Assembly: GCA_964347855.1 (NCBI GenBank)
Contig: CAYGAE010000003.1
Span: 1-39,147 of the forward strand
Direction: 5' to 3'
Origin: an uncultured Candidatus Bathyarchaeia archaeon
GTDB lineage: Archaea > Thermoproteota > Bathyarchaeia > Bathyarchaeales > Bathyarchaeaceae
DNA length: 39,147 nucleotides
Shown here: positions 2,904 to 32,201 of the stretch, piece after piece
Position numbering within the stretch: position 1 is the stretch's first letter
Layout: every line of letters starts with the position of its first letter
The notes under the pieces: model-generated
Database searches by the model: none
The model's input: the letters and a program-made list of their open reading frames with translations, nothing else
Told to the model about the DNA's origin: nothing
Made by a program: the position numbers and the translations under genes

Positions 2904-3416
2904 CTAAGGGAGAATTTCCGATAGAAGACGACCCAGTTGCTTCGCGGTTTTTTCTACCTGGCTAGTTAAGCCCTCTCCGAACGTGGCGTCCTCCGGCTGT
3001 ATCGCCAGTATAGCAACCTTGGCATCTGTTGTCTTTGCAAGGAATCTGCAGAATATTTGGAGAGGCAAAGCGTGGGTTGATATGGCTGGTTGATTGGCTA
3101 TCTGATCGGGATTTATGAGTTTCGAAGAACCAGGATCAAGGTCTAATGCGGCAGCGTCGACGACTAATATGTGGGTGGGGTTGAATTCTGTTATTGGTTC
3201 TATGAAGCTCTCGGGGACGGTTTCACATTCTATCAGATAAACGCGTTTGGAGACTTTGCCATACAAGTCTTTTACGATTTTTGTGCCGACGAAATCGTCC
3301 TTTCGAAGAGGATTCCCGATCCCGGCAATGACAACTCGCTGAGCGTCAGATAGCCAGGTTTTCAAAGTGACCTCAATATTATTCGTTTCAGTTTTGGGAC
3401 TGCCCATCGTTTCCAA
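2904..3416 (-). CDS. [NiFe]-hydrogenase maturation endopeptidase (HycI/FrhD/HyaD family)
   Basis: 170-aa ORF with family hallmarks: VVIAGIGNPLRKDDFVG near the N-terminus, a mid-protein VVDAA, and STHALPL near the C-terminus. It is the last gene of the minus-strand hdr operon. Confidence 0.8.
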   Translation of the reverse strand: METMGSPKTETNNIEVTLKTWLSDAQRVVIAGIGNPLRKDDFVGTKIVKDLYGKVSKRVYLIECETVPESFIEPITEFNPTHILVVDAAALDLDPGSSKLINPDQIANQPAISTHALPLQIFCRFLAKTTDAKVAILAIQPEDATFGEGLTSQVEKTAKQLGRLLSEILP

Positions 3417-3463
3417 CTTTGGTGACGCTTTTGAATATGTATTCTCCAGCGCGATCTCTCTGA

Positions 3464-4339
3464 TTAGATGAGTTTCAAAACCTTGGATGCATCGACTCTA
3501 AGTTGGCTCAAGGCTAGTTCGTCGGGGTTGAAGCCCATTGCCAATCCTAGGAGTTGCGTGTAGTGAAGTACTGGAATGCCGAAGGTTTCGTTGAAGGTTC
3601 GTTCTATTCTGGGTTGATTGATGTCAAACATCATGTGACAGTAAGGACACACAGTGATCAAAGCTTGGGCCCCAACACTCCTGATATGGCCAAGTTTTTC
3701 TTTAGCCAACCGGAGGGGAATTTGGTCGTTTACGCCGACTATGGGTCCGCCGCAGCACTCAGGTTCATCTATGTAGTCCAAGTATTTCGCTCCAGTTGCC
3801 TCAATTAGGGTTTTGAGAACCTTAGGATTTTCTGGGTCGTCAATGCCTACTTCTTTCGCAGGACGAACGACGTGACATCCAGTATGCTGCGCCACCTGGA
3901 GCTGATTAAGTGGCTTCTGAACGGCGTCTTTGATTTTTTCGAAGCCGATGTCTGTTGAGAGCACGTGAATGAGGTGTTTGATCTTTACTGTTCCTTTAAA
4001 CTCCATGCCGATTTCCTTCAAGTAGTCGTTGACTTTCTCCCTGAGTTTCTTGTCTTCTTTGAGTTCTTTGTTGACGTGGTTTAGGATGCCGAAACAGCCG
4101 TTGCACAGAGTCAGGATGTCTAAGTTCTGTTGCTCCGCTAAACAGAGGTTTCGTGCCGCCAAGGTGAGCATCATGTCGTGATTTACTGGATCCAATGGAA
4201 ATCCACAGCAGTTGAACTCTGGCATCTCCACCAATTCTACGCCAAGTTTATCGAGAACTTTTCTAGCGGAAATCTCGTAACTAGCGATTCTATACGGAGT
4301 AACGCATCCTAGAAAAAATAGGTACTTTAACTCTGGCAT
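3464..4339 (-). CDS. hdrB: Heterodisulfide reductase subunit B (two CCG domains)
   Basis: 291 aa with two CCG-type cysteine motifs (PEFNCCGFPL...LCNGC; EPECCGGPI...VCPYC). It sits 3 nt downstream of hdrC. Confidence 0.92.
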   Translation of the reverse strand: MPELKYLFFLGCVTPYRIASYEISARKVLDKLGVELVEMPEFNCCGFPLDPVNHDMMLTLAARNLCLAEQQNLDILTLCNGCFGILNHVNKELKEDKKLREKVNDYLKEIGMEFKGTVKIKHLIHVLSTDIGFEKIKDAVQKPLNQLQVAQHTGCHVVRPAKEVGIDDPENPKVLKTLIEATGAKYLDYIDEPECCGGPIVGVNDQIPLRLAKEKLGHIRSVGAQALITVCPYCHMMFDINQPRIERTFNETFGIPVLHYTQLLGLAMGFNPDELALSQLRVDASKVLKLI

Positions 4340-4342
4340 TTT

Positions 4343-4894
4343 TTAGGTCTTCTCCTTCTCAAGCGTCTTCGAAAAACCGGTAACGTCGAAAAGTTTGGTG
4401 ATGCTTTCTAAGTTGGCCTTTGGCAGAGAGGGCAATCCTGTCTCTTGCCTTTTTCTCAGCCGCATGTTTGGAATCGTGTAGGCATAGCCTGTTTTCCGGA
4501 TGTTAGAAGCTAACTCCTTGTACACGGCAGGCATGTGGCTCCTTTCTACAGTTAAGTTTCGAAGCGCCCGTACAATGCTGGCGATTCCCACATCTTGCGG
4601 GCAATGGTCGATACACGTAAAGCAGGTAGAACAGAGCCAGATGACATCGTTGGAAAGGAGTCTGTCTTTCAGGCCTAGTTGCGTCATTCGAATGAGTTTT
4701 CTGGGTCGGTAGAAATCATCAAACCGCGCGATTGGGCAGTCGGCTGTGCAAGTTCCGCATTGGAAGCATAACGCGATCTTTTCGGCTCCGGGAAACTTGC
4801 TTATATCGTATTTGAAGCGTGGATCCATTTCGCTTGATTTGACCATCGTTTTTTTAGTTGCCTCTGCTTGTGGCTTTTTCTTTGTTTCAGCCAT
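4343..4894 (-). CDS. hdrC: Heterodisulfide reductase subunit C (2x[4Fe-4S] ferredoxin-like)
   Basis: 183 aa with CFQCGTCTADCP and CSTCFTCIDHCP motifs. Its start overlaps the mvhD stop by 8 nt. Confidence 0.9.
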   Translation of the reverse strand: MAETKKKPQAEATKKTMVKSSEMDPRFKYDISKFPGAEKIALCFQCGTCTADCPIARFDDFYRPRKLIRMTQLGLKDRLLSNDVIWLCSTCFTCIDHCPQDVGIASIVRALRNLTVERSHMPAVYKELASNIRKTGYAYTIPNMRLRKRQETGLPSLPKANLESITKLFDVTGFSKTLEKEKT

Positions 4895-5321
4895 TGCTTG
4901 TTCCTCCAGCCCTTAGTGGGCTCGGTCCGAGTTTCTTTATTTCCTTCGTCATGTCCTTAATAATGGTTGCGAATCTCTCTCCTTCAGACGCCGAGACCCA
5001 CTCCAGTCGTAAACGCTCAGGTTTTAGACCTAAATGTTCCAAGACCTTCTTCAACATTAAAACTCTATGTTGTGCTTTGTAATTTCCAGAGAGGTAGTGA
5101 CAGTCGCCAGAGTGGCAGCCAGCGATGAGAACTCCGTCTGCTCCGCTTCGGAAGGCTTCGAGGATGAAAACTGGGTCAACTCTTCCGCTACACATCACCC
5201 TCACGATTCTAAGGGTTGGAGGATATTGGATTCGGCTAACACCTGCTAGGTCGGCACCGGCATAGGAGCACCAGTTGCAAAGGAAACCCACAATTTTTGG
5301 TTCAAATCCAGGTTTAGTCAT
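4887..5321 (-). CDS. mvhD: MvhD-type [2Fe-2S] adaptor protein (methyl-viologen-reducing hydrogenase delta subunit family), stand-alone
   Basis: 144 aa: FLCNWCSYAGADLAGVSRIQYPPTLRIVRVMCSGRVDP...GADGVLIAGCHSGDCHY. Overlaps the hdrA stop by 8 nt. Confidence 0.9.
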   Translation of the reverse strand: MTKPGFEPKIVGFLCNWCSYAGADLAGVSRIQYPPTLRIVRVMCSGRVDPVFILEAFRSGADGVLIAGCHSGDCHYLSGNYKAQHRVLMLKKVLEHLGLKPERLRLEWVSASEGERFATIIKDMTKEIKKLGPSPLRAGGTSNG

Positions 5322-8300
5322 ATTTTCCTTCCTCCATCAACGCGGCCCGAACTTGGGCAAGAATCTGGTCGTCAGTGAAGTGAAGCATGGATATGGCCTT
5401 AGCAGGGCAAGTGGAGCCACAGACGCCACAACCTTTACATAGAGCCTCGATAACGTGTGCCCTCGACTTTCCATTCATCTCTTCCATCTTGATGGCGCCA
5501 TACTCGCAAACGGGCTCGCAGAATCCGCATCCACTACAGAAGTCTTCGTTAACTCTGGCCACTGCTCCTTCTACTTCCAATACTTTCTTGGACAAAATCG
5601 TGATTGCTCGCGCCGCAGCTGCGGATGCTTGTGAAATGCTCTCTTCGATTGATTTCGGCCAGTGAGCCAACCCACAAAGGAATATGCCATCCGTTGCGAA
5701 GTCAACGGGACGGAGCTTCATGTGTGCTTCCAAGAAGAATCCGTCTTGGTTGAGTGGAACTTTCAGCATTTTTGCTATGTGATCGTTGTCTTGATTTGGA
5801 ATGGTGGCTACGCTCAGCGCCAAAAGGTCCGCCTCAATTGTCAGCCACATCTTGACGACTGGCTCCCAGACCACCATTTTGAGCTTGCCATCCTCTTGAA
5901 TAACCTTCGGCTTGTTTTCATCGTCATAGCGTATGAATAAGACTCCCTTACTTGCAGCCTCACGATAGTAATCCTCTATGAACCCGTATGTTCTCATGTC
6001 TTTGTACAGGACGTAGACGTCTGTTTCAGGGCTTAGCTCCTTAATCTTTAATGCATTTTTTACGGCTTGAGAACAGCATATTCGCGAGCAGTAGTGACGC
6101 TCTTCATTCCTAGAACCAACACATTGAATCATTGCCACAGTCTTAGCGCTAAACTGCCCATTAGCCAGCTTCTCTTCTAATGCACGCTGAGTCAAAACCG
6201 TTTTGTCGACACCATAGAGATACTCTGTCGGCTCATACTCCATGGCTCCAGCGGCAACTATCACAATGCCATGGTTTATCTCCTTTCTTTCTCCACCACA
6301 ACTAAGGGTCGTCTTGAAGTTTCCAACATATCCCTCAACATCGGAGATTTCAGAATTTAGATAAACATGAATTTTCTCGTTCCCATCGACTTCCTTTACG
6401 ATCGATTTCAGCTTTTCTTGCGGGGCCTCAGATCCAAGAAGATAATGTATATGGCGCAGGTGGCCTCCCAGTTCCTTCTCCTTCTCCACCAAATGGACCT
6501 CGAAGCCTTGTTTCGCCAATTCTAAGGCTGCAGTCATTCCTGACAAGCCGCCTCCGATCACTAGACCCGTGGGCGTAACATCTATCACCGGATTCTTGAG
6601 AGGCTTCAACAAGCGGGCTTTGGCGACAATGGATCTGACAAGATCCTTCGCTTTTTCAGTCGCTTCTTCAGGTTCATGCATGTGAACCCAGCTACATTGG
6701 TCACGAATGTTTGCCATCTCAAAGAGGTAAACGTTAAGCCCGGCTTTCCGGATGGTTTCTCTTAAAAGCGGTTCATGAGTTCTTGGAGTGCACGACGCCA
6801 CAACCACGCGGTTAAGGTTTTGTTCCTCTATTGTTTCCCTTATCCTCTTCTGAGCGTCTTCTGAGCACGTGTACAAATTATGCTCTGCGCAAACAACATT
6901 TGGCAACGTTTTAACGTACTCGACGACCTCTGGCACATCGACGACTCCCCCAATATTTATGCCGCAGTGGCAAACAAAAACTCCAATGCGGGGCTCCTCA
7001 TCGGATACGTCTCTCTCTGGTGGATACTCTTTTGCGGTTGTGAGCGTCCCTCTCTCCGACGAAATCAAGCTAGCCGCTTTTGCCGCGGCCCCACTCGCCT
7101 GCGCCACGCTCTCAGGAATGTCTTTGGGAGAAGAAAATGCTCCGCAAACGTATATTCCGGGCTTGGATGTCTCTAGCGGGGAGAACGTTTCAGAGCGACA
7201 GAAGTTGTATCTATTTAGTTTAATGTTCAGCGTTTTGGCCAATTCCTGAGCATGTTTGGGTGGCCTCATCCCAACCGATAGCACTACGAGATTGAATTCT
7301 TCGATCTTAAGGTTCCCATCTTCAACATATCTCAATAAGAGGTTTTGCGATTCCGGAATCTCTTCTATTCGAGGTACTCGAGACCTAACGAAAGTCACTC
7401 CGTATTCTTCTTCTGCTCTATTATAGTAAGCATCAAACTCCTTCCCATAGGCACGCACATCCATAAAGAAAATGGTGCATTGCAGGGTGGGATTGTGTTC
7501 CTTGGCTATGATCGCCTCTTTGATGGCATACATGCAACAAGCTGAAGAGCAGTAATTATTTCCAAGCTTAGCGTCACGCGAACCCACACATTGAATGAAT
7601 GCTATCTTCCGTGGAACCTTACCATCAGAGGGACGTAAGACCAATCCACCATAAGGTCCTGAAGCACTTAGAATACGCTCAAATTCAATGCTAGACACCA
7701 CATTTGAATACTGTCCATAGCCGTACTCCGTTTTGAGTTTTGGATCAAACTCTTCGAAACCTGGTGCCAGTATAATGGATCCAACGTGCAATACGGTTTC
7801 CCTTTCTTTTTCGTCATATTTGACCGCACCTGCCTTACAGATTTCTTGGCAGGTGCCACACCCGATGCATTTTTCTTTGTCAATGGCATAAACTAAGGGA
7901 ACCGCTTGCGGATACTTAACGTAGATCGCAGTTCTTTCGCCTAGGCCTTCATTGAATTCATCTATCGCTTCAACAGGGCATTTTCGAGCGCATAAACCGC
8001 AACCCGTGCACTTCTCTTCATCAATATACCTAGGTTTCCTTAGGCATGTAACTTGGAAGTGCCCTTCTTCACCTTCGACACTCTTTATTTCTGCGCCCAT
8101 AATTAGTTCAATGTTATGGTGCCTTCCAGCCGTGACCAGTTTCGGCGCTAGAATGCACATTGCACAATCATTGGTCGGAAAGGTTTTGTCGAGTTGGGTC
8201 ATGGTGCCGCCTATACTGGTTGATTCATCCAGCAGATACACTTTGAATCCTGAGTCAGCGAGATCGAGTGACGATTGTATTCCAGCGATTCCGCCGCCCA

Positions 8301-8334
8301 CTACGAGTACGGCGCCTACCTTGTCTTTCATCAT
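5314..8334 (-). CDS. hdrA: Tandem (double-module) HdrA-like flavoprotein
   Basis: 1006 aa. Residues 1-~425 are an FAD domain (VVGGGIAGIQSSLDLADSG, QLDKTFPTNDC, FIQCVGSRD, CSSACC) with an inserted 2x[4Fe-4S] ferredoxin (CTGCGLCARKCP, CIGCGTCQEIC). Residues ~448-1006 are an HdrA N-terminal Cys domain (RIGVFVCHCGINIGG), a second FAD domain (VIGGGLSGMTAALELAKQG, IQCVGSRN, CSRICC) without the insert, and a C-terminal ferredoxin (CSGCGFCEPVC, CKGCGVCGSTCP) ending in the HFTDDQILAQV tail. Confidence 0.9.
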   Translation of the reverse strand: MMKDKVGAVLVVGGGIAGIQSSLDLADSGFKVYLLDESTSIGGTMTQLDKTFPTNDCAMCILAPKLVTAGRHHNIELIMGAEIKSVEGEEGHFQVTCLRKPRYIDEEKCTGCGLCARKCPVEAIDEFNEGLGERTAIYVKYPQAVPLVYAIDKEKCIGCGTCQEICKAGAVKYDEKERETVLHVGSIILAPGFEEFDPKLKTEYGYGQYSNVVSSIEFERILSASGPYGGLVLRPSDGKVPRKIAFIQCVGSRDAKLGNNYCSSACCMYAIKEAIIAKEHNPTLQCTIFFMDVRAYGKEFDAYYNRAEEEYGVTFVRSRVPRIEEIPESQNLLLRYVEDGNLKIEEFNLVVLSVGMRPPKHAQELAKTLNIKLNRYNFCRSETFSPLETSKPGIYVCGAFSSPKDIPESVAQASGAAAKAASLISSERGTLTTAKEYPPERDVSDEEPRIGVFVCHCGINIGGVVDVPEVVEYVKTLPNVVCAEHNLYTCSEDAQKRIRETIEEQNLNRVVVASCTPRTHEPLLRETIRKAGLNVYLFEMANIRDQCSWVHMHEPEEATEKAKDLVRSIVAKARLLKPLKNPVIDVTPTGLVIGGGLSGMTAALELAKQGFEVHLVEKEKELGGHLRHIHYLLGSEAPQEKLKSIVKEVDGNEKIHVYLNSEISDVEGYVGNFKTTLSCGGERKEINHGIVIVAAGAMEYEPTEYLYGVDKTVLTQRALEEKLANGQFSAKTVAMIQCVGSRNEERHYCSRICCSQAVKNALKIKELSPETDVYVLYKDMRTYGFIEDYYREAASKGVLFIRYDDENKPKVIQEDGKLKMVVWEPVVKMWLTIEADLLALSVATIPNQDNDHIAKMLKVPLNQDGFFLEAHMKLRPVDFATDGIFLCGLAHWPKSIEESISQASAAAARAITILSKKVLEVEGAVARVNEDFCSGCGFCEPVCEYGAIKMEEMNGKSRAHVIEALCKGCGVCGSTCPAKAISMLHFTDDQILAQVRAALMEEGKYD

Positions 8335-9104
8335 GTTACCTCCAGTGCGATGTATAGGGGGTCCTCCCCTTCCATTCTATCCAGGGTAACTAGCCCTCGC
8401 TGCTTCAAGATCACCATGTGGCGCAACACGATTTTCGGGTCCAAGCGCAAATGTTTGGCTAAACCTTCAACGGACATTGGCTTATTCTTCACAAGAAGAT
8501 GAATTCTGCTTCGTACGTACTCTGCATCGATACTCTCATCCATCAATTCGTCAAACTCCTTTTGTTCCACTTTTTCACCGTACACGTTTTCTTCTTCGAC
8601 TAGCCTCTTCTCTCTGCCCACCAGCGTTCGCAGTCTAGAATCTCCCGCCACTGCTTTGGCTGCCATAAGGCTGGCCAACAATTTTTTGTCTCGATTTCCT
8701 CCGGCCAAAGGAGACGGCCCTAGCGCCGTCACGTGATTTCTAAAATCGTTAACGATGTGTGCGAAGCGTTCAATTTCGGACGCATAAGCCCAGTCTAACC
8801 CAAGGCGCCCTGGTTCAAGACCAGTTCGCGAAATGAGTTTCTTTAGCATCGCAATTTTCCGTTCTGCCTGAAGGTTTCCTTCAACGTAGTGACAATCGGG
8901 TGGGTGACAGCCTATTACCAAAACCCCGTCTGCCCCCTTGGCAAAAGTTTCTAGCACGATAACTGGATCGATTCTCCCAACACACATTACTCGTACTATG
9001 TGTATTTTGGGGTGACCAGGTATGGTGTCAGTACCTGCAATGCCGATATCTGTAGGCAGACTCCAGTTACATACAAAACCAATGATTTTAGGTCTAAACA
9101 TCAT
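8331..9104 (-). CDS. MvhD-like domain fused to a C-terminal winged-helix-like domain
   Basis: 257 aa. The N-terminal ~140 aa align with MvhD (IIGFVCNWSLPTDIGIAG...IHIVRVMCVGRIDP...GADGVLVIGCHPPDCHY), but the CNWC motif is CNWS here. The C-terminal ~60 aa (MSVEGLAKHLRLDPKIVLRHMVILKQRGLVTLDRMEGEDPLYIAL) have a wHTH pattern. ATGA overlaps on both sides. Confidence 0.8.
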   Translation of the reverse strand: MMFRPKIIGFVCNWSLPTDIGIAGTDTIPGHPKIHIVRVMCVGRIDPVIVLETFAKGADGVLVIGCHPPDCHYVEGNLQAERKIAMLKKLISRTGLEPGRLGLDWAYASEIERFAHIVNDFRNHVTALGPSPLAGGNRDKKLLASLMAAKAVAGDSRLRTLVGREKRLVEEENVYGEKVEQKEFDELMDESIDAEYVRSRIHLLVKNKPMSVEGLAKHLRLDPKIVLRHMVILKQRGLVTLDRMEGEDPLYIALEVT

Positions 9105-10834
9105 GCGGCTTCTCTCCCCAAAACGGCTGCAACATTAGCCACAATTTGAGCATCTGTAAACCGTCGCAAGGTAATCGCTCGGTCGGGACAACTTGCGCTA
9201 CAGATCCCACAGCCCTTACATAGGTCTTCGTCCACTTGCGCAATCCCCATTTCATTCTTCTTTACGGCGCCAGTGGGGCAGACTACCGCGCAGAGGTTGC
9301 ACCCAGTACACAAAGTTTCATCGATCACTGCTTTGTCAGCTTCACACAACTCCTCGCTTCCGAGACATTCAGTGCATGGTCCGCATTCGAGACACCTCCG
9401 GGCTTCGAACATGGCGACTTCTTTAGTCGTCGCTAGGAGTTCATCGGCTTTCTCAAAGCTTACTTTCTGTCTCCCCACGTCTAGGTGTGGAACGGTATAT
9501 CTCTCAGGCTTTTTGGTCATCTTTTCCGAGTCTTTAACCCAAGTTGTCTCTTCAATTTCCTCTTCTCGACCAATCCTCAAATCCTCGCCATTCAAATAAC
9601 GGCCTATTGACTCCGCCGCTCGTTTGCCTGCACCTACAGCCTCTATTACGCTTGCAGGACCGGTGACTATGTCACCTCCTGCAAAAACACCAGGGATCCT
9701 AGTTTCCAGTGTTAATGGATCAACCGAAATACCACGTGCACGCTCATCCAAAAGAATGGAAGGTAGACATGAAGTTTCCGCCAGTTGACCGATTGCCGCA
9801 ATTACTGTATCCGTCTCATACGTGTGCTCAGACCCTTGGATGGGTATTGGACGCCTTCTGCCGCTTGCGTCAGGTTCTCCCAGCTCCATCCTCAAACATT
9901 CTATAAGCTTGATCCTGCCTCCCTCACCAATAATTTGCTTGGGTGCAACTAGAAATTGGAACTTAACTCCTTCTTCTCTTGCAGCATCTATTTCGTGGGG
10001 AAGTGCTGGCATTTCTTTCCGGGAGCGACGGTAGAGAATCGTGACCTCTTTTGCCCCAAGTCTTAGCGATGTGCAAGCGGCATCGATGGCGCTGTTGCCT
10101 CCTCCGATGACCGCAACTTTCTCGCCTACGTCAATCGTTTTTCCTAGGGATACATGCCTTAAGAATTCAACTGCGTGAAAAACACCCTCCAAATCTTCGC
10201 CCGGTATCCCCAGTTTTGTGCTCAATTGTGCTCCGTTCGCTATGAATGTGGCTTTGTAGCCCTCATTTCGTAGAGTGTCAAGCTGTACGTCTTTGCCGAA
10301 TTCTACTCCTGTCTTGATCTCCACACCTAGATCTTGGATGTACGCTATTTCATTATTTACAACATATTTTTGCAGACGATAGTCAGGGATACCGTATCGC
10401 ATCATGCCGCCAGGTTCAGGCATACGCTCAAAAACTGTAACTGGATAGCCGAGTTTTGCGAGTTCGTATGCAGCGCTCAGTCCTGCTGGTCCCGCGCCAA
10501 CTATCGCCACTTTTTCACGGTGCGTTTTGGGTATGGGATCTGGTTTGATTCGCCCTTGTTCACGTTCAATGTCTGCAGCAAGTCTTTTCAAATAACGAAT
10601 GCCCACAGGCTGATCGATGTTTCTTCTTGAACACGCATCCTGGCAAGGGCTGAAGCAGACTCTGCCGCAAATTGCCGGAAAAGGCATGCTCTTTCTCACT
10701 AGTTCCACCGATTCTTTGAACTTCCCTTGCTGAAGTAGGGCAATATATCCCTGAACATTCACGTCGGCAGGACATGCGGCACGACAGGGAGGTAGCTTCC
10801 GTTTGTTCTTGAAAGCGCAACTAAGAGCGGTCAT
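9101..10834 (-). CDS. GltD/NfnB-family NAD(P)H-dependent FAD oxidoreductase with a C-terminal HdrA-style 2x[4Fe-4S] ferredoxin tail
   Basis: 577 aa. The N-terminal Cys region is CRAACPADVNVQGYIALLQQGKFKESVELVRKSMPFPAICGRVCFSPCQDAC. Two dinucleotide folds are present (VAIVGAGPAGLSAAYELAKLG; VAVIGGGNSAIDAA), as is GVFAGGD. The C-terminal ~100 aa add CTGCNLCAVVCP and CKGCGICSASCP and end with AITLRRFTDAQIVANV, the same tail seen at the end of the HdrA ferredoxin domains in this window. Confidence 0.85.
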   Translation of the reverse strand: MTALSCAFKNKRKLPPCRAACPADVNVQGYIALLQQGKFKESVELVRKSMPFPAICGRVCFSPCQDACSRRNIDQPVGIRYLKRLAADIEREQGRIKPDPIPKTHREKVAIVGAGPAGLSAAYELAKLGYPVTVFERMPEPGGMMRYGIPDYRLQKYVVNNEIAYIQDLGVEIKTGVEFGKDVQLDTLRNEGYKATFIANGAQLSTKLGIPGEDLEGVFHAVEFLRHVSLGKTIDVGEKVAVIGGGNSAIDAACTSLRLGAKEVTILYRRSRKEMPALPHEIDAAREEGVKFQFLVAPKQIIGEGGRIKLIECLRMELGEPDASGRRRPIPIQGSEHTYETDTVIAAIGQLAETSCLPSILLDERARGISVDPLTLETRIPGVFAGGDIVTGPASVIEAVGAGKRAAESIGRYLNGEDLRIGREEEIEETTWVKDSEKMTKKPERYTVPHLDVGRQKVSFEKADELLATTKEVAMFEARRCLECGPCTECLGSEELCEADKAVIDETLCTGCNLCAVVCPTGAVKKNEMGIAQVDEDLCKGCGICSASCPDRAITLRRFTDAQIVANVAAVLGREAA

Positions 10835-10892
10835 ACTTTTGGAAGACCCCCATTGTTATTCGCTTATTGAGAACTAAAAAAAGGGGCATTGA

Positions 10893-11486
10893 TTAAAGGC
10901 TCAGAATTCGCGGTTGACCTAGCTTGTTCACCAACGTTTTATATTGGGGTAGCTTCATCAAATCCCTTAACTCTTCTTCTAATGTGATTACGTTGTTAGG
11001 TTTGATTTCGGCTATCCATAATTCATGCGGCTCTTTGTTGATTATGAATGGCTCGTCTTGCAGACCTTCATTGATTTTGATGACTCTGCCACTGACTGGA
11101 GAGGTTAGGTCGAACATGAACATCCACGTTTCAACAACCCCTAGGGGCTCTCCCTTCTTCACTTCAAATCCGACATGATGCGTCTGGATACTAGCTACTC
11201 CTTTCAAACGCCTTTGGGCGTAGTCGGCTAAGCCTACTCTTATGTTTCCTTCAGGAGTCACCATTGCCCACATGTGCTCAGGGGTGTAAAGCAGCCGTTC
11301 TTGGACTACTGGATATTCAGGCCGCTTCTCAGCTGTCTTCTCATGTCTTCGCTCAAGTTCATCAAGGCGCACTCGAATAGCTTCAGACACAAACTCGGAG
11401 AGACTACGGTAGCGGCCCTTCTCGAGCGTCCTCTTTGCCGCTGCCACGAGTTCTTGTCTAAGGCGTATAGTTTTCCATTCTGGCAT
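10893..11486 (-). CDS. Ribbon-helix-helix (CopG-like) domain fused to a glycine-cleavage-H-like domain lacking the lipoyl-lysine; putative regulator
   Basis: 197 aa. The N-terminus (KTIRLRQELVAAAKRTLEKGRYRSLSEFVSEAIRVRLDELE) fits an RHH pattern. Residues ~65-165 align colinearly with GcvH (YTPEHMWA...VGLADYAQ..L...GEPLGVVETWMFMFDLTSPVSGRVIKINE...P..IN.EP). The position of the lipoylated Lys (ESVKA in E. coli GcvH) is Met (codon 11121-11123). Confidence 0.75.
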   Translation of the reverse strand: MPEWKTIRLRQELVAAAKRTLEKGRYRSLSEFVSEAIRVRLDELERRHEKTAEKRPEYPVVQERLLYTPEHMWAMVTPEGNIRVGLADYAQRRLKGVASIQTHHVGFEVKKGEPLGVVETWMFMFDLTSPVSGRVIKINEGLQDEPFIINKEPHELWIAEIKPNNVITLEEELRDLMKLPQYKTLVNKLGQPRILSL

Positions 11487-11508
11487 GTACTTTTCTCCTG
11501 TCTCTTAC

Positions 11509-12099
11509 TTAGTGAAGCCGACCGTCAAGTCTAGCAACTAGTTTCTTGTACTCTCCTAAACTTAGCAGCCCGTTCATCCACGAGTTAACTTCTGTGTTCT
11601 CAGGCTGGATCTCAACAATCCATTGATAGGGTTCGACGTTCAATCTGAATGGGTCGTCGATGACCGTCTTGTTGACTGAGAGTATCTCTCCGTTTAATGG
11701 AGAATATAGGTCGTATGTGAACCACCAGGTTTCAGCTACACCAAAGGGTTCATCTTTAGAAACCTCCTTTCCGACATCATCTGTTCGAATATTGACTATC
11801 TCTCGGAGTTGGCCCTGGAAATAATCAGTTATCCCGATCTTTACATTTCCTTGAGGAGTTGCTTGGGCCCAGATGTGTTCTGGCACGTAGAACAACCGCG
11901 CTTGCAGTTGAAGCGTTCTGCTGACCCTATCTCGCTCCAGATATTCCGATACTCTTTCTTTGGCTAACGTTTGTAGGCGACTTCGAATGGCTTCTGAAGC
12001 GAATTCAGTGAGGCTTTGATACTGTCTTTTCTCTACTTCTTTCTTCATTTCATCTGCGAGTTCTTGTCGAATCCTTACAGTTTTCCATTTTTGCGGCAT
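11509..12099 (-). CDS. Paralogous RHH + GcvH-like (lysine-less) protein; putative regulator
   Basis: 196 aa with the same architecture as 10893-11486 (KTVRIRQELADEMKKEVEKRQYQSLTEFASEAIRSRL; YVPEHIWAQ...IGITDYFQGQL...DEPFGVAETWWFTYDLYSPLNGEI). The lipoyl-Lys position is Trp (codon 11722-11724). A strong AGGAGGTGG lies just upstream of the ATG. Confidence 0.75.
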   Translation of the reverse strand: MPQKWKTVRIRQELADEMKKEVEKRQYQSLTEFASEAIRSRLQTLAKERVSEYLERDRVSRTLQLQARLFYVPEHIWAQATPQGNVKIGITDYFQGQLREIVNIRTDDVGKEVSKDEPFGVAETWWFTYDLYSPLNGEILSVNKTVIDDPFRLNVEPYQWIVEIQPENTEVNSWMNGLLSLGEYKKLVARLDGRLH

Positions 12100-12209
12100 A
12101 CATATACCACCTCCTTTCTATCGAGAGGTATCTATATTCTGAGCTCTATAAATACATAATCTTTATATTTTACTAATGATAAATACTATAAATACCATGG
12201 GTGGGTCAG
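12100..12209. promoter_or_regulatory. AT-rich divergent promoter region between the RHH-GcvH-like/hdr operon and the abrB-phoU gene
   Basis: Several TATA-like elements are present. The octamer ATAAATAC occurs three times (12148-12155, 12179-12186, 12188-12195), and CTATAAATAC occurs twice (12146-12155 and 12186-12195). Confidence 0.5.
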
Positions 12210-13256
12210 ATGGAGACTAGAAAGTTACAAAAAGTTGGCCACTCAACCCTATCGGTCTCTCTGCCAAGCGACTGGGTTAAGGACATGGACTTGAAACGTG
12301 GGGACATTGTATCCATCGAGTCAGAAAAAGATGGCTCACTCAAGCTATTTCCAAGCAAGCTTCTCCAGCAAAATGAAGAAATCGAGGAATACTTCTGCAA
12401 CGCCGATTTATGCGATGATCCAAAAATGTTGGAACGAATAATAGTCGGTAATTACATCTTGGGTCGTGACCTTTTCTCGATAATATCTTCTGAAAGGATG
12501 AGTACTGAACATATCGAAGAAGTCCGGGGAATAATGCGTAAACTGATTGGGTTGGGAATTGTCGAGGAGACACCAGATCGTATTACTATTCAGTGCTCTG
12601 TTGATCCGCGAAAATTCCACCTAGACATGCTGTTGCGAAGGCTTTCAATAATTTCGCTGACCATAGTAAAGGAAGCAATACAAGCACTCACAGATTTCGA
12701 TGAGGCACTAGCAAAAGATGCTATAGATCGAGAGGACGAGGCCGATATGATGTTTTTGCTGGCCATGAGGTTACTCATTTCTGCACAAAGAAGAAGAAAT
12801 ATAGCTGATGAAATAGGATTGACGGACCCTCTGCATATTCTATACTTTGGATTGATGTTGAGATATCTTGAGCTAGTTGCTGATTACGCTGAAGAAAATG
12901 CACGCAGAGTTATTGAACTGATAAATAAATATCAGGATAGGTTGCCTGAATGGGTAATCGAAAGAATAAGCAACCTGAATGACTTAGCCCATGACTTAGT
13001 CCTGAAAGCTGTTGATTGCTTCTTCATTGGCGACATCAAGATCGCAAACAGCGTCTTGGAAATGTTGACATTCATTGAGCTAGAAAGAGACAGATTGATA
13101 CAGGAACTTCCGGAGATACCCCATTTGAGGTTGATACTTTGGAACATCACTAGAATAGCAGCCATGGGTGTGGGTATCGCCTTGAAAGCAATCAACAATA
13201 CTCTTGAAAAGAAAACTAAGATATGCACAACCCGATGGTCAACAAGCTTCAAATAG
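12210..13256 (+). CDS. AbrB/SpoVT-domain + PhoU-like-domain regulator
   Basis: The N-terminus (METRKLQKVGHSTLSVSLPSDWVKDMDLKRGDIVSIESEKDGSLKLFP) is a swapped-hairpin AbrB/MazE-type motif. It is followed by ~280 aa of helical PhoU-like repeats (DREDEADMMF...), a common archaeal architecture. The ORF track starts at GTG 12201; ATG 12210 is preferred. Confidence 0.7.
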   Translation: METRKLQKVGHSTLSVSLPSDWVKDMDLKRGDIVSIESEKDGSLKLFPSKLLQQNEEIEEYFCNADLCDDPKMLERIIVGNYILGRDLFSIISSERMSTEHIEEVRGIMRKLIGLGIVEETPDRITIQCSVDPRKFHLDMLLRRLSIISLTIVKEAIQALTDFDEALAKDAIDREDEADMMFLLAMRLLISAQRRRNIADEIGLTDPLHILYFGLMLRYLELVADYAEENARRVIELINKYQDRLPEWVIERISNLNDLAHDLVLKAVDCFFIGDIKIANSVLEMLTFIELERDRLIQELPEIPHLRLILWNITRIAAMGVGIALKAINNTLEKKTKICTTRWSTSFK

Positions 13257-13348: not shown

Positions 13349-13525
13349 TCACTTTGTAGACTTCTTTTCTATCAGAATTTTTCCATCTCTCATCGCGATC
13401 CATCTCAATATATCACCATCTTCAAGCTTCAACAAGTTGAATATCTTGGCCGGAACAGTTGTCCTGTGCCTATACTTTCTGACTGTGACCTTCGTCTCTT
13501 CCACATAGAGGACATCTTCTAGCAT
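13349..13525 (-). CDS. Small stand-alone AbrB/SpoVT-like protein (58 aa), below the ORF-track length cutoff
   Basis: Hand translation of the minus strand gives MLEDVLYVEETKVTVRKYRHRTTVPAKIFNLLKLEDGDILRWIAMRDGKILIEKKSTK*. The pattern (x-TVPAKI...L.L..GD.L.W....DG.I.I.K) is typical of AbrB/MazE-type DNA-binding domains. ATG at 13525-13523, TGA at 13351-13349. Confidence 0.55.
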   Translation of the reverse strand: MLEDVLYVEETKVTVRKYRHRTTVPAKIFNLLKLEDGDILRWIAMRDGKILIEKKSTK

Positions 13526-13649: not shown

Positions 13650-13691
13650 ATTGGTATACTACCAACACCTATTGGTATCCTACCAACACCT
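13650..13691 (+). promoter_or_regulatory. Two tandem 21-bp repeats, each containing the palindrome TTGGTA-N3-TACCAA; candidate operator pair
   Basis: attggtatactaccaacacct (13650-13670) and attggtatcctaccaacacct (13671-13691) match at 20/21 positions. The inverted arms TTGGTA/TACCAA lie at 13651-13665 and 13672-13686. A TATA-like tttaaata sits at 13627-13634, just upstream. Confidence 0.55.
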
Positions 13692-16478: not shown

Positions 16479-16521
16479 TTTTGTTCTTCACTAAGAGATT
16501 GTCGTAAGTTGCGTGAATCAC

Positions 16522-17460
16522 ATGGAAAAACTGAAATTTGCCTTCTATTGGGCCGCCAGCTGCGGAGGTTGCGAAATAGCGGTGCTGGACATAAACGAAA
16601 AAATCCTAGATGTTGTTGCCAAGGCAGACATCCTCTTCTGGCCAGTAGCTATGGACATTAAATACAAAGATGTGGAGGCGTTTCCAGATAAACACATTGA
16701 TGTTTGCTTCTTTAATGGGGCAATTAGAAACGAAGAACAGGAACACGTAGCCAAACTCTTGAGACGAAAGTCTAAAGTTCTCGTGGCTTTCGGCTCCTGC
16801 GCCTGTGACGGATGTGTCGTAGGCCTTGCGAATCTCTGGGACAGAGAAACAGTCTTTGAACGAGCGTACCTTGAAACGCCTTCGACGAAAAACCCTGAAT
16901 CAGTGACACCGAAGACTTCTGTTAGGGTCAAAGAAGGAGAGTTGGAACTACCTGAATTTTACAACACTGTGAAAACCCTAGCCCAGACGGTAGACGTAGA
17001 CTATTTTCTCTCAGGGTGTCCCCCACCGATTCCCAGTATAGTTCAAGCGGTCGGAGCAATTTTCAACAATAAGTTGCCTCCGAAAGGAGCAAGTTTGCTA
17101 CCAACCAAGTCCATTTGCGATGAATGCCCCAGAGAGAAAAAGGACAAACAGCTCTCTGAAATAAGGAGAATCTACGAAATCGACGACGACCTAAAAACAT
17201 GCTTCTGGGACCAAGGGGTCATATGCATGGGTCCAGCTACACGAGCAGGCTGTGGCGCCCAGTGTCCAAACGTAAACATACCTTGCACAGGTTGCGATGG
17301 GCCAGGTCCACGCGTCACAGACCAAGGTGCTGCCGCAATCAGCGCACTTGCATCCATTGCAACTAATCCAGAAGTCATCAATCAGGTTGTGGATCCAGTT
17401 GGAACCTTCTACAAATACTCTCTTGCCAATTCAATTCTCAGGAGGAAGGTGATGAAATGA
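16522..17460 (+). CDS. mvhG: F420-non-reducing (group 3c-like) [NiFe]-hydrogenase small subunit
   Basis: FYWAASCGGCEIAVLD proximal-cluster motif plus further Cys clusters (GSCACDGC; CDECP; CGAQCPNVNIPCTGCDGP). The stop overlaps the mvhA start (ATGA). The ORF track begins at GTG 16513; ATG 16522 is preferred. Confidence 0.9.
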   Translation: MEKLKFAFYWAASCGGCEIAVLDINEKILDVVAKADILFWPVAMDIKYKDVEAFPDKHIDVCFFNGAIRNEEQEHVAKLLRRKSKVLVAFGSCACDGCVVGLANLWDRETVFERAYLETPSTKNPESVTPKTSVRVKEGELELPEFYNTVKTLAQTVDVDYFLSGCPPPIPSIVQAVGAIFNNKLPPKGASLLPTKSICDECPREKKDKQLSEIRRIYEIDDDLKTCFWDQGVICMGPATRAGCGAQCPNVNIPCTGCDGPGPRVTDQGAAAISALASIATNPEVINQVVDPVGTFYKYSLANSILRRKVMK

Positions 17461-18911
17461 AAGAAATAGTCATAGACCCGATCACAAGACTGGAAGGTCA
17501 TGGAAAAATCACCATATTCCTAAACGACCAGGGAAACGTGGAAAACGCCTACTTCCAAGTCCCCGAACTTAGAGGGTTTGAGCGGTTCTGCGAAGGAAGA
17601 AGGGCGGAAGACTTACCCATAATAACGACTAGAATCTGCGGAGTCTGCCCCGTTGCCCACCACATGGCGGGTGCAAAGGCGTTAGACGCGGCATTCAATG
17701 TGGAACCGACAGATCCGGCTAAGAAGTTGAGAGAGCTGGAGTATGTCTGCTACTATATCTACGATCACATATTGAATTTCTACTTTTTGGCTGCTCCAGA
17801 TTTCGTTGTAGGGCCAGACGCTCCACCAGCGAAAAGAAACATTCTTGGAGTGATAGAGAAAGTCGGCTTGGATATTGCCAAAGAAGTAATCAAACACAGG
17901 GCCTATGGACAGAAGATGACCGGCATAATCGGAGGGAGACCAACTCATCCAGTGAGCGCTTTACCAGGCGGCATATCCAAGGCACTGTCTGAGGAGGAAC
18001 GACAAGAAATCGAAAAAATGGTCAGAAGCTGCATCGAATTCGCAAAATTCTCACTGAAAATATTCGACGATGTTGTTCTCAAGAACGTTGACTACGTAAA
18101 CTTGATCAAAAGCGAGCCGTACACTTTAGAGACCTATTACATGGGAACTGTTGACAAAAACAACAAAGTAAACTTCTACGACGGCGATGTCCGAGTAATT
18201 GATCCGAAAGGAAAGGAGTTTGTGAAGTTTGCTCCCGCAGAATATTTGGATGTTATCGAAGAACACGTTGAACCGTGGACCTACGTCAAATTACCCTACC
18301 TCAAAAAGGTTGGATGGAAAGGTCTAGTGGCTGGGCCTGATAGTGGCATCTACAGAGTTGGCACCCTTGGAAGACTGAACGCCGCAGAAGGCATGGCGAC
18401 ACCCATAGCCCAAGAAGAGTACGCGAGGATGTACAAGACTCTGGGCGGCAAACCTGTTCACGCCACCTTGGCATTTCATTGGGCACGGCTGATAGAACTC
18501 ATGTACGCAACCGAACGAGCCTTGGAGTTGGTCACGGACAAGGAAATAACGAGCAAAAATATCAGGAATAAACCTGGAAACCCCGGCGAAGGAGTCGGAA
18601 TAGTCGAGGCTGCTAGGGGCACTCTGATTCACCATTATGTACTCGATGAAAAAGCCTTAGCCAAAAAGGTCAACTTGATAGTGGCCACAGTCAACAATGC
18701 ACCGAGCATTTGCATGTCCGTAAGAAACGCTGCAAAAGGCCTTATACGCAACGGCAAAGTCAGCGATGGACTTTTGAACATGGTGGAGATGGCTTTCAGA
18801 GCCTACGACCCCTGCTTTGCCTGCGCCACCCACTTCGCCATCGGTGAAATGCCGTTAAAAGCGGAGATTTACAACCATAAAAAGAGATTAATAAAGACCA
18901 TAGAAAGGTGA
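17457..18911 (+). CDS. mvhA: F420-non-reducing (group 3c-like) [NiFe]-hydrogenase large subunit
   Basis: RLEGHG, the N-terminal Ni-binding RICGVCPVAHH motif, and the C-terminal DPCFACATH motif. A ~25-aa tail follows, consistent with proteolytic maturation. Confidence 0.92.
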   Translation: MKEIVIDPITRLEGHGKITIFLNDQGNVENAYFQVPELRGFERFCEGRRAEDLPIITTRICGVCPVAHHMAGAKALDAAFNVEPTDPAKKLRELEYVCYYIYDHILNFYFLAAPDFVVGPDAPPAKRNILGVIEKVGLDIAKEVIKHRAYGQKMTGIIGGRPTHPVSALPGGISKALSEEERQEIEKMVRSCIEFAKFSLKIFDDVVLKNVDYVNLIKSEPYTLETYYMGTVDKNNKVNFYDGDVRVIDPKGKEFVKFAPAEYLDVIEEHVEPWTYVKLPYLKKVGWKGLVAGPDSGIYRVGTLGRLNAAEGMATPIAQEEYARMYKTLGGKPVHATLAFHWARLIELMYATERALELVTDKEITSKNIRNKPGNPGEGVGIVEAARGTLIHHYVLDEKALAKKVNLIVATVNNAPSICMSVRNAAKGLIRNGKVSDGLLNMVEMAFRAYDPCFACATHFAIGEMPLKAEIYNHKKRLIKTIER

Positions 18912-18921
18912 GGGATTAGCG

Positions 18922-21345
18922 ATGGAAAAGGCAAAAGTTGGAGTATTCCTGTCTGACTGCGGAGAACAGCTCTCTGAAATCCTGGACTTCAAAGCTCTAA
19001 CTGACTACGTGAAAACCGTTCCAGACGTAGTCCTTGTTGCGAGACGCAGTGAGTTTTGGCGGGGCCAAGGATTACAGGCAATTCTAGATGCTGTTAAAAG
19101 TGGAAAAATTAACAGAGTCGTTGTTGCGGAGAGCCTCCCGAAGCTAAGCGAGGTGAACATCGTTGAAGCCGTTGAAGAGGGAGGTCTTAATCCGTATTTG
19201 GTGGAAGTCATCGACCTGAAAGACCACTGCGCCTGGCCTCATCGGGAGACGCCTAAAGAAGCCACAGAAAAAGCCAAAGCCATGCTTCTAGCCGCCACCG
19301 AACGCGCCAGACTTCTCGAACCGATAGAGAAACTTGAGTTTCCAGCCCTCAAATCTGTCCTGGTCATTGGCGGAGGGATAGCGGGTATGCAGGCGGCTGT
19401 AGATTTGGCGGACTTGGGATTCGCCGTGAACCTGATTGAAAAGGAGCCGTTTCTCGGGGGCTTGGCTGCTCGCGCGGGGCGATTCTTCCCTACGGACGAT
19501 TGTGCCATCTGTATACAGTCTCCGGCTTCTGATGTGAAAACAATTACCCACACCTCAAGGAAGTGTGTGTACCGTTCCGGTTTCAGCGAGATTCCCAACC
19601 TAAACATACTGGCCAACTCAAGAGTCGTGGGTGTTGAAGGGGTTCCTGGAAACTATAAGGTCACAATAGAGAAGAAACCGAGATATGTTGACGAGCTGAA
19701 ATGTGTTGCGTGTGATTTATGCACCACCGTTTGCCCAGTGGAAGTACCTGACGAGTACAATGCGAAGCTGAAAACCCGCAAAGCCATCTACATGAACATT
19801 CCGAACGTTCATCCACCCGTTTACATCATCGACGAAAGCATCTGCAAATTCTACGACTGCGCCAAATGCGTGAATATCTGCCCGACCAAAGCCATAGAAT
19901 TAGATCAGAAAAGCGAGCAAATAACCCTAAACGTAGGCAGCATAATAATTGCCACAGGCTTCCAAGAGTGGGATTCCAGCATCATAAAGGAGTATCACTA
20001 CGATGACTACCAAGACGTGATAACCAACCTTGAACTCGCTAGGATGATCGACGGCTTCGGCCCCACGGGTGGCGTCATTATTAGACCTTCAGACCGCAAA
20101 CCTGCCAAGAAAATCGTCTTCATACAATGTGTGGGTTCAAGGGACAGACGATGGAATCCCTATTGCTCGAGCATCTGCTGCATGATTTCGCTAAAACATG
20201 CCTTATTAACGAAATCAGCCTATCCCGATACAGACATTACAGTATGTTACATTGATATAAGAACCACCGGAAGGCAGCACGAAGACTACTACGAACGAGC
20301 CAGAGAGTTGGGCGTAAAGTTCCTCAAAGGTAGACCAAGCGAAATCACACGGGACCCAGAGACTAATAAACTAATCGTAGACGTTGAAGACGAACTTCTG
20401 AAAAGAATCCTAGAATTAGACGCTGACCTAGTGGTGTTGGCTCCTGCCATGGTACCTTCTGAAGGAACCAAGGAACTTGCTCAGATTGGTTTTGAGCCTC
20501 TGTTGGATGAAGACGGCTTCTTCAAGGAGTACAACGCTAAACTGAGACCAACTGAAACCCGGCTTAGGGGGATATACATTTGCGGAGGAGCAACCTTCCC
20601 CAAGGATGCACCAACAACTTCCCTCCATGCACACTCGGCCGCTGTAAAGGCCGCCAAATTCATGACGACGGGCAAGATAGTCAAGGATCAGAGAACTGCC
20701 GTGATCAACGAAGAATTTTGTGGTGACTGCGAGTTCTGCCCGGTCACGTGTCCGTACGGTGCCATAACCCTGGTGCCAACCACTGAAAAGCACTTTGTGG
20801 CAGAAGTCTCGGATCTCATGTGCGAAGGATGCGGCATTTGTGTGGGTACTTGCCCTCTCAACGCCATCGAGCTCAGGCATTCGAGGCCCACCCAGATGCT
20901 GGCCCAGATGAAGGCACTCATGTCTGTAAATGGAACATCGAAGCCCTTGGTTCTGGCCATCTGTTGTTCAGAATGCGGTCACACCGCCATAGACTCTTCT
21001 GGCATGGCTATGATGCAGTATCCCGCCAACGTCAGAGTCATGAAAGTTCCTTGCACCGGAATTCTGCAAGTTCACCAACTCCTTGAGGCTTTCAAGGCGG
21101 GGGCTCAAGGAGTTATGGTTGTGGGATGCAAAAGCGACGGTTGCCACTACGAGATCGGTAGCCAGAAGGCTGAAAAGAAGGTGGAACTTGCCCGGATACT
21201 GCTGAAGGAATATGGTATAGCGCCAAAGAGGTTGGCGATGTTCAACATGGTTTTCATCGAAGGAGACAAATTTGCCGAGGCTGCACAAGCGATGACTGAG
21301 AGATTGGAAAAGTTGGGTCCACTGCAGTTTGCGGAAGGCCCCTAG
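18922..21345 (+). CDS. hdrA: HdrA-MvhD fusion protein (N-terminal domain depleted of cluster cysteines)
   Basis: 807 aa with the FAD fold (VIGGGIAGMQAAVDLADLG), GRFFPTDDC, inserted ferredoxin (CVACDLCTTVCP, CAKCVNICP), FIQCVGSRD, CSSICC, and C-terminal ferredoxin (CGDCEFCPVTCP, CEGCGICVGTCP). An MvhD domain follows (LAICCSECGH...VMKVPCTGIL...GAQGVMVVGCKSDGCHY). The N-terminus reads VGVFLSDCGEQL instead of VFVCHCGxNI. Confidence 0.9.
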   Translation: MEKAKVGVFLSDCGEQLSEILDFKALTDYVKTVPDVVLVARRSEFWRGQGLQAILDAVKSGKINRVVVAESLPKLSEVNIVEAVEEGGLNPYLVEVIDLKDHCAWPHRETPKEATEKAKAMLLAATERARLLEPIEKLEFPALKSVLVIGGGIAGMQAAVDLADLGFAVNLIEKEPFLGGLAARAGRFFPTDDCAICIQSPASDVKTITHTSRKCVYRSGFSEIPNLNILANSRVVGVEGVPGNYKVTIEKKPRYVDELKCVACDLCTTVCPVEVPDEYNAKLKTRKAIYMNIPNVHPPVYIIDESICKFYDCAKCVNICPTKAIELDQKSEQITLNVGSIIIATGFQEWDSSIIKEYHYDDYQDVITNLELARMIDGFGPTGGVIIRPSDRKPAKKIVFIQCVGSRDRRWNPYCSSICCMISLKHALLTKSAYPDTDITVCYIDIRTTGRQHEDYYERARELGVKFLKGRPSEITRDPETNKLIVDVEDELLKRILELDADLVVLAPAMVPSEGTKELAQIGFEPLLDEDGFFKEYNAKLRPTETRLRGIYICGGATFPKDAPTTSLHAHSAAVKAAKFMTTGKIVKDQRTAVINEEFCGDCEFCPVTCPYGAITLVPTTEKHFVAEVSDLMCEGCGICVGTCPLNAIELRHSRPTQMLAQMKALMSVNGTSKPLVLAICCSECGHTAIDSSGMAMMQYPANVRVMKVPCTGILQVHQLLEAFKAGAQGVMVVGCKSDGCHYEIGSQKAEKKVELARILLKEYGIAPKRLAMFNMVFIEGDKFAEAAQAMTERLEKLGPLQFAEGP

Positions 21346-27160: not shown

Positions 27161-27164
27161 TTGG

Positions 27165-31978: not shown

Positions 31979-32201
31979 CTTTATGTCTCCGGTTGTGATG
32001 GTCTCGAAGTGGCTTTTAGAATTAAGCATAATCACCATTTAAACTCTTAAACATCTCGCTTAAAACCTCTAGATGTCAAAGCAGACAATCTTGACCAAGT
32101 AGAATCGTTCTCTCATGTCTTACTTTTAGCACAAGAGCCAAAAGCGCGCAGATTCTCCCAGGCTTTGGTTTTTTCACTTTATTGGCAATCTCTTGATAAG
32201 G

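Follow-up and report, generated by a model that had tools for sequence, protein, structure and literature searches.

Ribbon-helix-helix proteins with a lysine-less GcvH domain, candidate transcription regulators beside the hdr genes of Bathyarchaeia

Two tandem genes at the head of an hdr operon

Two adjacent genes in a 39,147-nucleotide (nt) stretch of DNA from an uncultured Candidatus Bathyarchaeia archaeon (contig CAYGAE010000003.1 of assembly GCA_964347855.1, hereafter called the window) encode proteins that join an N-terminal ribbon-helix-helix (RHH) module to a GcvH domain lacking the lipoyl lysine. Both lie on the minus strand. The upstream gene, copy A (11509-12099), specifies 196 amino acids with the hairpin ETWWF, and copy B (10893-11486) specifies 197 amino acids with the hairpin ETWMF. 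Each is an open reading frame (ORF) whose product matches the Pfam GCV_H family (E=4.6e-23 for copy A and 1.3e-24 for copy B), and the two proteins are 46% identical over their full length (BLASTP, E=3e-58). Copy A is separated from copy B by 22 nt, and the end of copy B from the next gene, GltD-Fd, by 58 nt. The span of the pair (10893-12099) and both spacings had been given in an earlier note on this DNA, and the ORF list agrees with them.

That note also placed the pair at the head of an hdr operon, which is borne out by the genes that follow on the same strand, all assigned by Pfam. GltD-Fd (9101-10834), a GltD-like NAD(P)H flavoprotein fused to ferredoxin, is followed by MvhD-wHTH (8331-9104), in which MvhD (FlpD, E=7e-40) carries a C-terminal domain with an ArsR-type winged helix-turn-helix (wHTH) fold (HTH_5, E=6e-6), and then by a double-length HdrA (5314-8334; NCBIfam HdrA2, 1051 bits), a second MvhD (4887-5321), HdrC (4343-4894), HdrB (3464-4339) and the hydrogenase protease HycI (2904-3416). 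These genes, from 2904 to 10834, form the presumed target operon of the RHH-GcvH proteins. On the other side of the pair, a gene for an AbrB(SpoVT/MazE)-PhoU regulator is transcribed divergently (12201-13256, plus strand; Pfam MazE_antitoxin, E=1.7e-8, and PhoU, E=1.2e-10). The MvhD-wHTH protein is itself a second fusion of a redox protein with a DNA-binding fold in the hdr operon, and it occupies the same position in nearly all related loci.

Fusion of an RHH module to a GcvH fold without its lysine

The C-terminal domains, residues 70-188 of copy A (11536-11892, minus strand) and residues 65-186 of copy B (10929-11294, minus strand), belong to the GcvH family, as had been proposed. Both match Pfam GCV_H (PF01597, cut-off 22.2 bits), and a phmmer search of the PDB with copy B gave E=2e-17. 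An AlphaFold2 (AF2) model of copy B has per-residue confidence (pLDDT) values of 80-93 across residues 65-190 and matches bovine H-protein (PDB 3klr) in Foldseek with E=1e-11 and a TM score of 0.92. All 22 significant Foldseek matches of this model are GcvH or GcvH-L proteins. Scores against the NCBIfam GcvH models fall below the cut-offs, with 98 bits (copy B) and 95 bits (copy A) versus 117 for NF002270, and 80 and 76 bits versus 116 for TIGR00527.

The hairpin that carries lipoate in GcvH has been altered in both copies. Alignment and a scripted reading of the codons place Trp126 of copy A (codon 11722-11724, TGG; hairpin at 11719-11733, minus strand) and Met122 of copy B (codon 11121-11123, ATG; hairpin at 11118-11132, minus strand) at the position of the lipoyl lysine. 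For example, in a HMMER alignment with GcvH from Thermus thermophilus (PDB 1onl), the lipoyl lysine of VVESVKTASD faces Met122 of VVETWMFMFD. The earlier assignment of these substitutions survives realignment across a family of 101 sequences, comprising the two window proteins and members from other genomes, to which the Thermus protein was added as a reference row. The lysine-equivalent column holds Met in 83 sequences, Trp in 14, Leu in three, Pro in one and Lys in none, and the only lysine is that of the Thermus reference. Judged from these sequences, the GcvH-fold domain cannot be lipoylated. Also, neither window protein contains a cysteine.

The altered hairpin hardly varies across the family (E-[TS]-W-[MW]-F), and residues W121, F123, D126, L127, P130 and G133 (copy B numbering) are invariant in both paralogue groups, indicating that the hairpin has been rebuilt and is held under selection rather than decaying. 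More distant members, recovered in a search of representative sequences, carry other lysine-less hairpins such as VETVARWPLVIHDL, AETPGWWYLRDLCCP and VLTRFAHVDL with a C-terminal Cys motif. In four of the distant members (P0247, P0250, P0256 and P0273) cysteine pairs adjoin the hairpin that once held lipoate (DLCCP) or a CxxCxxCPKKNC motif lies at the C-terminus, and such proteins may represent versions of the RHH-GcvH architecture that sense metals or redox state.

The N-terminal module spans residues 1-50 in both proteins (11950-12099 in copy A and 11337-11486 in copy B, both minus strand). It was assigned in copy A by homology to free-standing RHH proteins and to orthologues that match the Pfam family RHH_1, and in copy B by the same orthologues, a profile search and an AF2 model showing coil followed by two helices. 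Its layout in copy B is a predicted strand, W-K-T-I-R-L-R, then a helix (residues 11-23), a turn, G-R-Y-R-S-L-S, and a second helix (residues 29-51). Throughout the family the strand reads K-T-[IV]-[RS]-[ILV]-R, so that polar or basic residues alternate (T6, R or S8, R10) with hydrophobic residues at positions 7 and 9. A 13-residue helix, a G-x-Y-R-S-[LI]-S turn and an F-V-S-E-A-I-R helix follow, and the start of helix 2, R-S-[LI]-S-E-F, agrees with the RHH_1 consensus.

Two full-length orthologues pass the RHH_1 gathering score of 20.5 bits, with 23.1 and 22.0 bits, their residues 6-43 covering profile positions 3-39 of 39. Within a 23-member alignment of the module, RHH_1 is matched by nine sequences and RHH_6 by eight, and there are also matches to RHH_8, ParD, TacA1 and PSK_trans_fac. 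A profile built from the module finds 45 free-standing proteins of 46-98 amino acids with E-values down to 1e-21. Several of these have been named “Arc/MetJ-type ribbon-helix-helix transcriptional regulator” by JGI, and three pass RHH_1 (25.8, 23.4 and 20.7 bits). A profile search of the PDB with the N-terminal alignment returned NikR (E=0.2) and a CopG antitoxin (E=0.56) amid coiled-coil noise, and is not decisive alone. Because the module-alignment matches, the free-standing relatives and the RHH_1-passing orthologues agree, we regard membership of the module in RHH_1 as settled at the level of sequence homology.

Gene context, promoters and candidate operators

The RHH-GcvH architecture is widespread in Bathyarchaeia. 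Scanning one genome per species yielded 107 relatives, the best 80 of which are all from Bathyarchaeia/Thermoproteota metagenome-assembled genomes (MAGs). A homology search with copy B returned 657 homologues, and orthologues of copy A that are 61-95% identical occur in many Bathyarchaeia. Among the 1.84 billion representatives searched, about 15 clusters (at 50% identity) have the full RHH plus GcvH architecture, and the source names of homologues, where given, all point to Bathyarchaeia. In these source annotations the homologues are named only “hypothetical protein” or “glycine cleavage system H protein”. Full-text literature searches found no description of a protein combining RHH/CopG with GcvH, or of the regulation of these hdr clusters, in keeping with the remark in the earlier note that the architecture was not known to have been characterized.

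To count gene contexts, the window proteins were mapped by tblastn onto 83 related loci, and downstream counts were restricted to loci with at least 2.5 kb of downstream sequence (n=69) and upstream counts to those with at least 1.8 kb upstream (n=72). The GltD-Fd gene lies directly downstream of the RHH-GcvH gene in 61 of 69 loci, where it is followed by MvhD-HTH, HdrA, MvhD, HdrC, HdrB, MvhG and MvhA. The linkage to hdr that had been predicted for other genomes is thus observed directly. AbrB-PhoU, which is divergent in 65 of 72 loci, is as constant a partner as hdr, and it is probably a co-regulator. A literature search for a characterized archaeal AbrB-PhoU example found none. At the eight loci where no hdr genes lie downstream, the divergent AbrB-PhoU gene is still kept in six, so that the AbrB/MazE and PhoU fusion stays paired with RHH-GcvH. 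One of the eight that was checked in detail (L067) has a TauE transporter gene followed by NuoEFG-like and NiFe (Hox-type) hydrogenase genes, and at another (L059) unrelated genes follow. TauE was dropped as a constant partner, since the orthologue of the window's TauE is present in five loci only.

The tandem arrangement, by comparison, is restricted. Only 16 of 72 loci have the pair, a single copy being usual. Proteins from such single genes show the ETWMF hairpin and resemble copy B (53-59% identity) more than copy A. The duplication behind the pair is specific to certain lineages, and of the original description of tandem paralogues beside hdr it is the hdr linkage, rather than the tandem, that extends to most loci. 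In two separate MAG assemblies, GCA_975958255.1 (L084, 2290-3543) and GCA_975900995.1 (L085, 263-1516), an A-type and a B-type RHH-GcvH protein are fused in a single chain of 417 amino acids (P0241) with the same neighbours in both. This natural fusion argues for joint action of A and B, the simplest form of which would be an RHH heterodimer.

The pair and AbrB-PhoU share an AT-rich divergent region of 101 nt (12100-12200). It contains three GTATTTAT repeats on the minus strand, which read ATAAATAC on the plus strand (12148-12155, 12179-12186 and 12188-12195), and a Shine-Dalgarno sequence, GGAGG (12110-12114). Elsewhere in the 39 kb window GTATTTAT has one occurrence only. In other lineages the divergent region is occupied by a palindrome, TAGTA-NN-TAC[TC]A. 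Of the 37 copies of it that 1.28 Mb of related loci contain, 34 are in this position. Where the divergent region is long (450-570 nt), the element is found at both ends. The repeat in the window appears to be a variant of this palindrome.

Signals are also conserved between the RHH-GcvH gene and GltD. Oligo-T runs serve as termination signals for archaeal RNA polymerase, and 7 nt after the stop codon of copy B there is a terminator-like C4T7 run (10876-10886, minus strand). Most related loci have a C-rich stretch with an oligo-T run after the stop codon of RHH-GcvH, and it would presumably act there as a terminator. In single-copy lineages a gap of 100-170 nt precedes GltD, with a conserved promoter-like element, TTAGRTGNCTTAATATAT, about 40 nt before this gene. 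TGYYA direct repeats with 11-nt spacing lie upstream of the GltD promoter in 13 of 52 gaps under a strict pattern, compared with 0.13 expected from shuffles, and they stand at a fixed distance of 33 nt from the TATA box. In loci such as L019 and L063, repeats of the form TGTYA(A) with the same 11-nt spacing are found 33 nt upstream of a conserved TTAATATAT box before GltD, and they are absent from the short gap of the window. A recurrent 9-mer common to the divergent promoter and the GltD promoter was looked for, and none was found.

A further palindrome, TTGGTA-N3-TACCAA, lies between a gene for a 58-amino-acid AbrB/MazE-like protein (13349-13525, minus strand; Pfam MazE_antitoxin, 24.7 bits) and the TauE transporter gene. 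Two copies are present in the window (13651-13686), two each in L003 (6726-6787), L038 (8346-8399) and L084 (541-593), and one in L009 (2493). Across 1.3 Mb of loci the palindrome occurs seven times, in each case here, and the gene and palindromes together give the impression of a small independent regulator and the operator belonging to it. For TauE, the listed TTG start (13651) probably reads through the palindrome repeat, and the Met of MIWNEIL is the likely real start.

The region from 2904 to 35678, which includes the presumed target operon, is a dense “Hdr island” with six HdrA-like genes (5314-8334, 18922-21345, 25022-27346, 27165-28478, 29597-32038 and 33204-35678), most of them fused to MvhD. 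The island also holds two HdrBC sets, one MvhGA hydrogenase (16513-18911), a pair of NfnB/GltD-like and NfnA-like genes (22748-25020) and a thioredoxin-reductase-like gene (28628-29572). To its left, an ORF of 924 amino acids (31-2805, plus strand) has no Pfam match at E<=1e-5. To its right, genes for an Rpb1-type large subunit of RNA polymerase (an ORF that reaches the end of the window), an L7Ae-family ribosomal protein and a NusA-like KH protein (35680-39147, minus strand) form a standard archaeal transcription and translation cluster, indicating that the window is of chromosomal archaeal origin.

A candidate one-component regulator and its alternatives

In our judgement copies A and B are probably, though by no means certainly, paralogous one-component transcription regulators, in which the RHH module is joined to a lysine-less GcvH domain that serves for sensing or interaction. 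The module would dimerize, in the lineage of the window probably as an A/B heterodimer, and would bind DNA near the promoters of its own gene, of the divergent AbrB-PhoU gene and/or of the GltD-MvhD-HdrABC-MvhAG operon, which it might activate or repress. The GcvH-fold domain would keep the H-protein fold without being lipoylated and would set DNA-binding activity according to a signal or partner, with the former lipoyl hairpin now presenting a conserved aromatic/Met tip, E-T-W-[M/W]-F. A regulator had been proposed at the outset, and this is still the best available reading given the RHH_1 homology, the alternating polar/basic strand, the gene's own promoter and oligo-T run in most lineages, and its persistence at loci without hdr.

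Several observations weigh against a DNA-binding regulator. The window proteins themselves fall below the RHH_1 threshold and give only sub-threshold matches to related families (RHH_6, E=0.08; PSK_trans_fac, 0.03; YlcI_YnfO_N, 3e-4; ParD, 4e-3), such that the CopG/RHH segment originally proposed is upheld by orthologues that match the whole RHH_1 profile but not by the scores of the two proteins in which it was noticed. In the full-length AF2 monomer residues 1-10 are coil, followed by two helices, and the beta-strand is not formed. A model of the isolated module (pLDDT 84) likewise has two helices and no ribbon, and its single Foldseek match, to the RHH domain of ParD, is non-significant (E=4.3). 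A ribbon requires a dimer, and these monomer predictions are only consistent with an RHH fold. Moreover, in the clade of the window the gap to GltD is 45-60 nt (58 nt in the window) and has no TATA box, suggesting that the pair and the enzyme genes probably share a transcript, as would be expected if the pair encoded subunits. Any DNA binding is inferred, the operators are candidates, and the conserved cis-elements could belong to AbrB-PhoU instead. Finally, since MvhD also carries a wHTH domain, DNA-binding-type folds in the hdr cluster may be structural.

Such points fit an unlikely but serious alternative, in which the RHH-GcvH proteins do not bind DNA but belong to the GltD-MvhD-Hdr-Mvh complex as accessory subunits or adaptors, their GcvH-like domain docking onto the enzyme in the manner of H-protein or LbpA and their N-terminal helices only dimerizing. 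The tight synteny with GltD and hdr (61 of 69), the operon-like spacing and strong Shine-Dalgarno sequences in the clade of the window, the wHTH-type domain on MvhD of the same operon, and the precedent of GcvH-family proteins as partners of Hdr-like complexes (LbpA, PMC6067878; GcvH beside Hdr in Culexarchaeia, PMC9723716) would all be expected of a subunit. We nevertheless favour a regulator because the homology to RHH_1 includes the DNA-contact pattern, because in most lineages the gene has the transcription unit of a regulator, with an oligo-T run and a separate hdr promoter between it and GltD, because it persists with AbrB-PhoU at loci without hdr, because it is paired with this second, divergent regulator gene, and because the palindromes are highly specific. 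A subunit of this kind would also have neither Lys nor Cys with which to carry a cofactor or substrate. The co-transcription with hdr that was originally proposed is plausible for the clade of the window, where transcription reading through from the divergent promoter probably serves the hdr genes, but the C4T7 run after copy B and the separate hdr promoter of most other lineages speak against it as a general arrangement.

More doubtful is a coupling of both roles, the idea with which the work began, in which the GcvH domain takes the Hdr complex (at the HdrB site, for instance) or AbrB-PhoU as its partner and thereby releases or recruits the RHH module on DNA, so that the state of the enzyme feeds back on transcription. 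The invariant hydrophobic tip stands where lipoate was once attached, and it is with this surface that H-protein and LbpA meet their partner enzymes. The gene is co-conserved with both hdr and AbrB-PhoU, but the hallmarks of LbpA are absent and loci without hdr keep the RHH-GcvH protein. We attach a similarly low probability to a specific form of this coupling, in which the domain would be a lipoyl-carrier mimic that docks through its invariant W-[M/W]-F hairpin onto Hdr (HdrB) or the GltD module, or binds the disulfide/thiol substrate of non-methanogen Hdr, and the RHH module would then make transcription respond directly to the state of an electron-bifurcating enzyme. Highly improbable, finally, are the identities of an antitoxin of RHH type, paired with a toxin, and of a functionless GcvH paralogue in decay. 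Weak matches to the antitoxin families ParD, TacA and PSK_trans_fac hint at the former, but strong purifying selection across a whole archaeal class, with the altered hairpin included, and the fixed chromosomal context argue against both. No toxin-like gene adjoins RHH-GcvH in the window or in 85 loci, and the antitoxin identity was rejected on this ground.

Bathyarchaeia are abundant uncultured archaea of sediments, with many Hdr/Mvh complexes for which neither the disulfide substrate nor the regulation is known. The RHH-GcvH family is a class-wide candidate regulator of Hdr/Mvh genes, together with the divergent AbrB-PhoU, and its defined candidate operators make it testable in vitro. In this family a lipoyl-carrier fold without its cofactor site has probably been put to new use, as the regulatory part of a transcription factor. 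Should a ligand or partner of the GcvH domain be found, it could point to what the Hdr complexes of Bathyarchaeia reduce, and if the domain does mimic a lipoyl carrier, this would be a new sensing principle as well as a handle on the Hdr substrate.

Comparison with known proteins places the family between several groups. The fold is that of GcvH (TM score 0.92 to 3klr), and the Pfam GCV_H profile is matched over its whole length, but where GcvH has a lipoyl lysine at the hairpin tip (ESVKA) the RHH-GcvH proteins have Met or Trp, along with the RHH fusion and scores below the GcvH cut-offs. The genomic association of GcvH is with gcvT and gcvP, whereas RHH-GcvH genes adjoin hdr genes, and the annotations of the genes around them, read for the window and for loci L001-L003, L084 and L085, include neither gcvT nor gcvP. 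Divergent GcvH-fold paralogues in roles other than glycine cleavage, as proposed here, include GcvH-L, “not_gcvH” and GcvH-related proteins (PDB 5a35; TIGR03077; NF045810), although matches to them are weak and far below the family cut-offs (Foldseek, E=4e-6; TIGR03077, E=4e-12; NF045810, E=8e-5).

LbpA is a lipoate-binding, GcvH-like partner of sulfur-oxidizing sHdr, with a strictly conserved lipoyl lysine and usually two conserved cysteines near the N- and C-termini (PMC6067878). Like the RHH-GcvH proteins it is a GcvH-family protein encoded beside Hdr-type genes. However, it has no DNA-binding domain, the RHH-GcvH proteins have neither its lysine nor its cysteines, and their gene cluster is of the Mvh/HdrABC type with a GltD module rather than a sulfur-oxidation sHdr cluster. 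Membership in LbpA was rejected for the lack of Lys and Cys. For the same reason the suggestion in the earlier note that the domain was built from a former Hdr partner of this kind is not supported, and in the search of representatives the closest relatives that do carry the Lys resemble ordinary GcvH.

On the N-terminal side, free-standing Arc/MetJ/CopG-type RHH proteins of Bathyarchaeia are 40-70% identical to the module but have no GcvH domain. NikR, whose RHH domain (PDB 2wvb, residues 14-49) is the one that aligns with the N-terminal profile at E=0.2, resembles the RHH-GcvH proteins in combining an N-terminal RHH with a C-terminal regulatory domain in one polypeptide, a putative effector-binding domain in the latter proteins, and in lying beside the genes that it would control. 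The C-terminal part of NikR is an ACT-like domain with a His/Cys metal site, whereas that of the RHH-GcvH proteins has the barrel-sandwich fold of GcvH with neither Cys nor metal ligands. NikR already exemplifies RHH regulators that carry a sensor domain at the C-terminus, and what is new in this family is the GcvH effector fold and its testable link to Hdr/Mvh.

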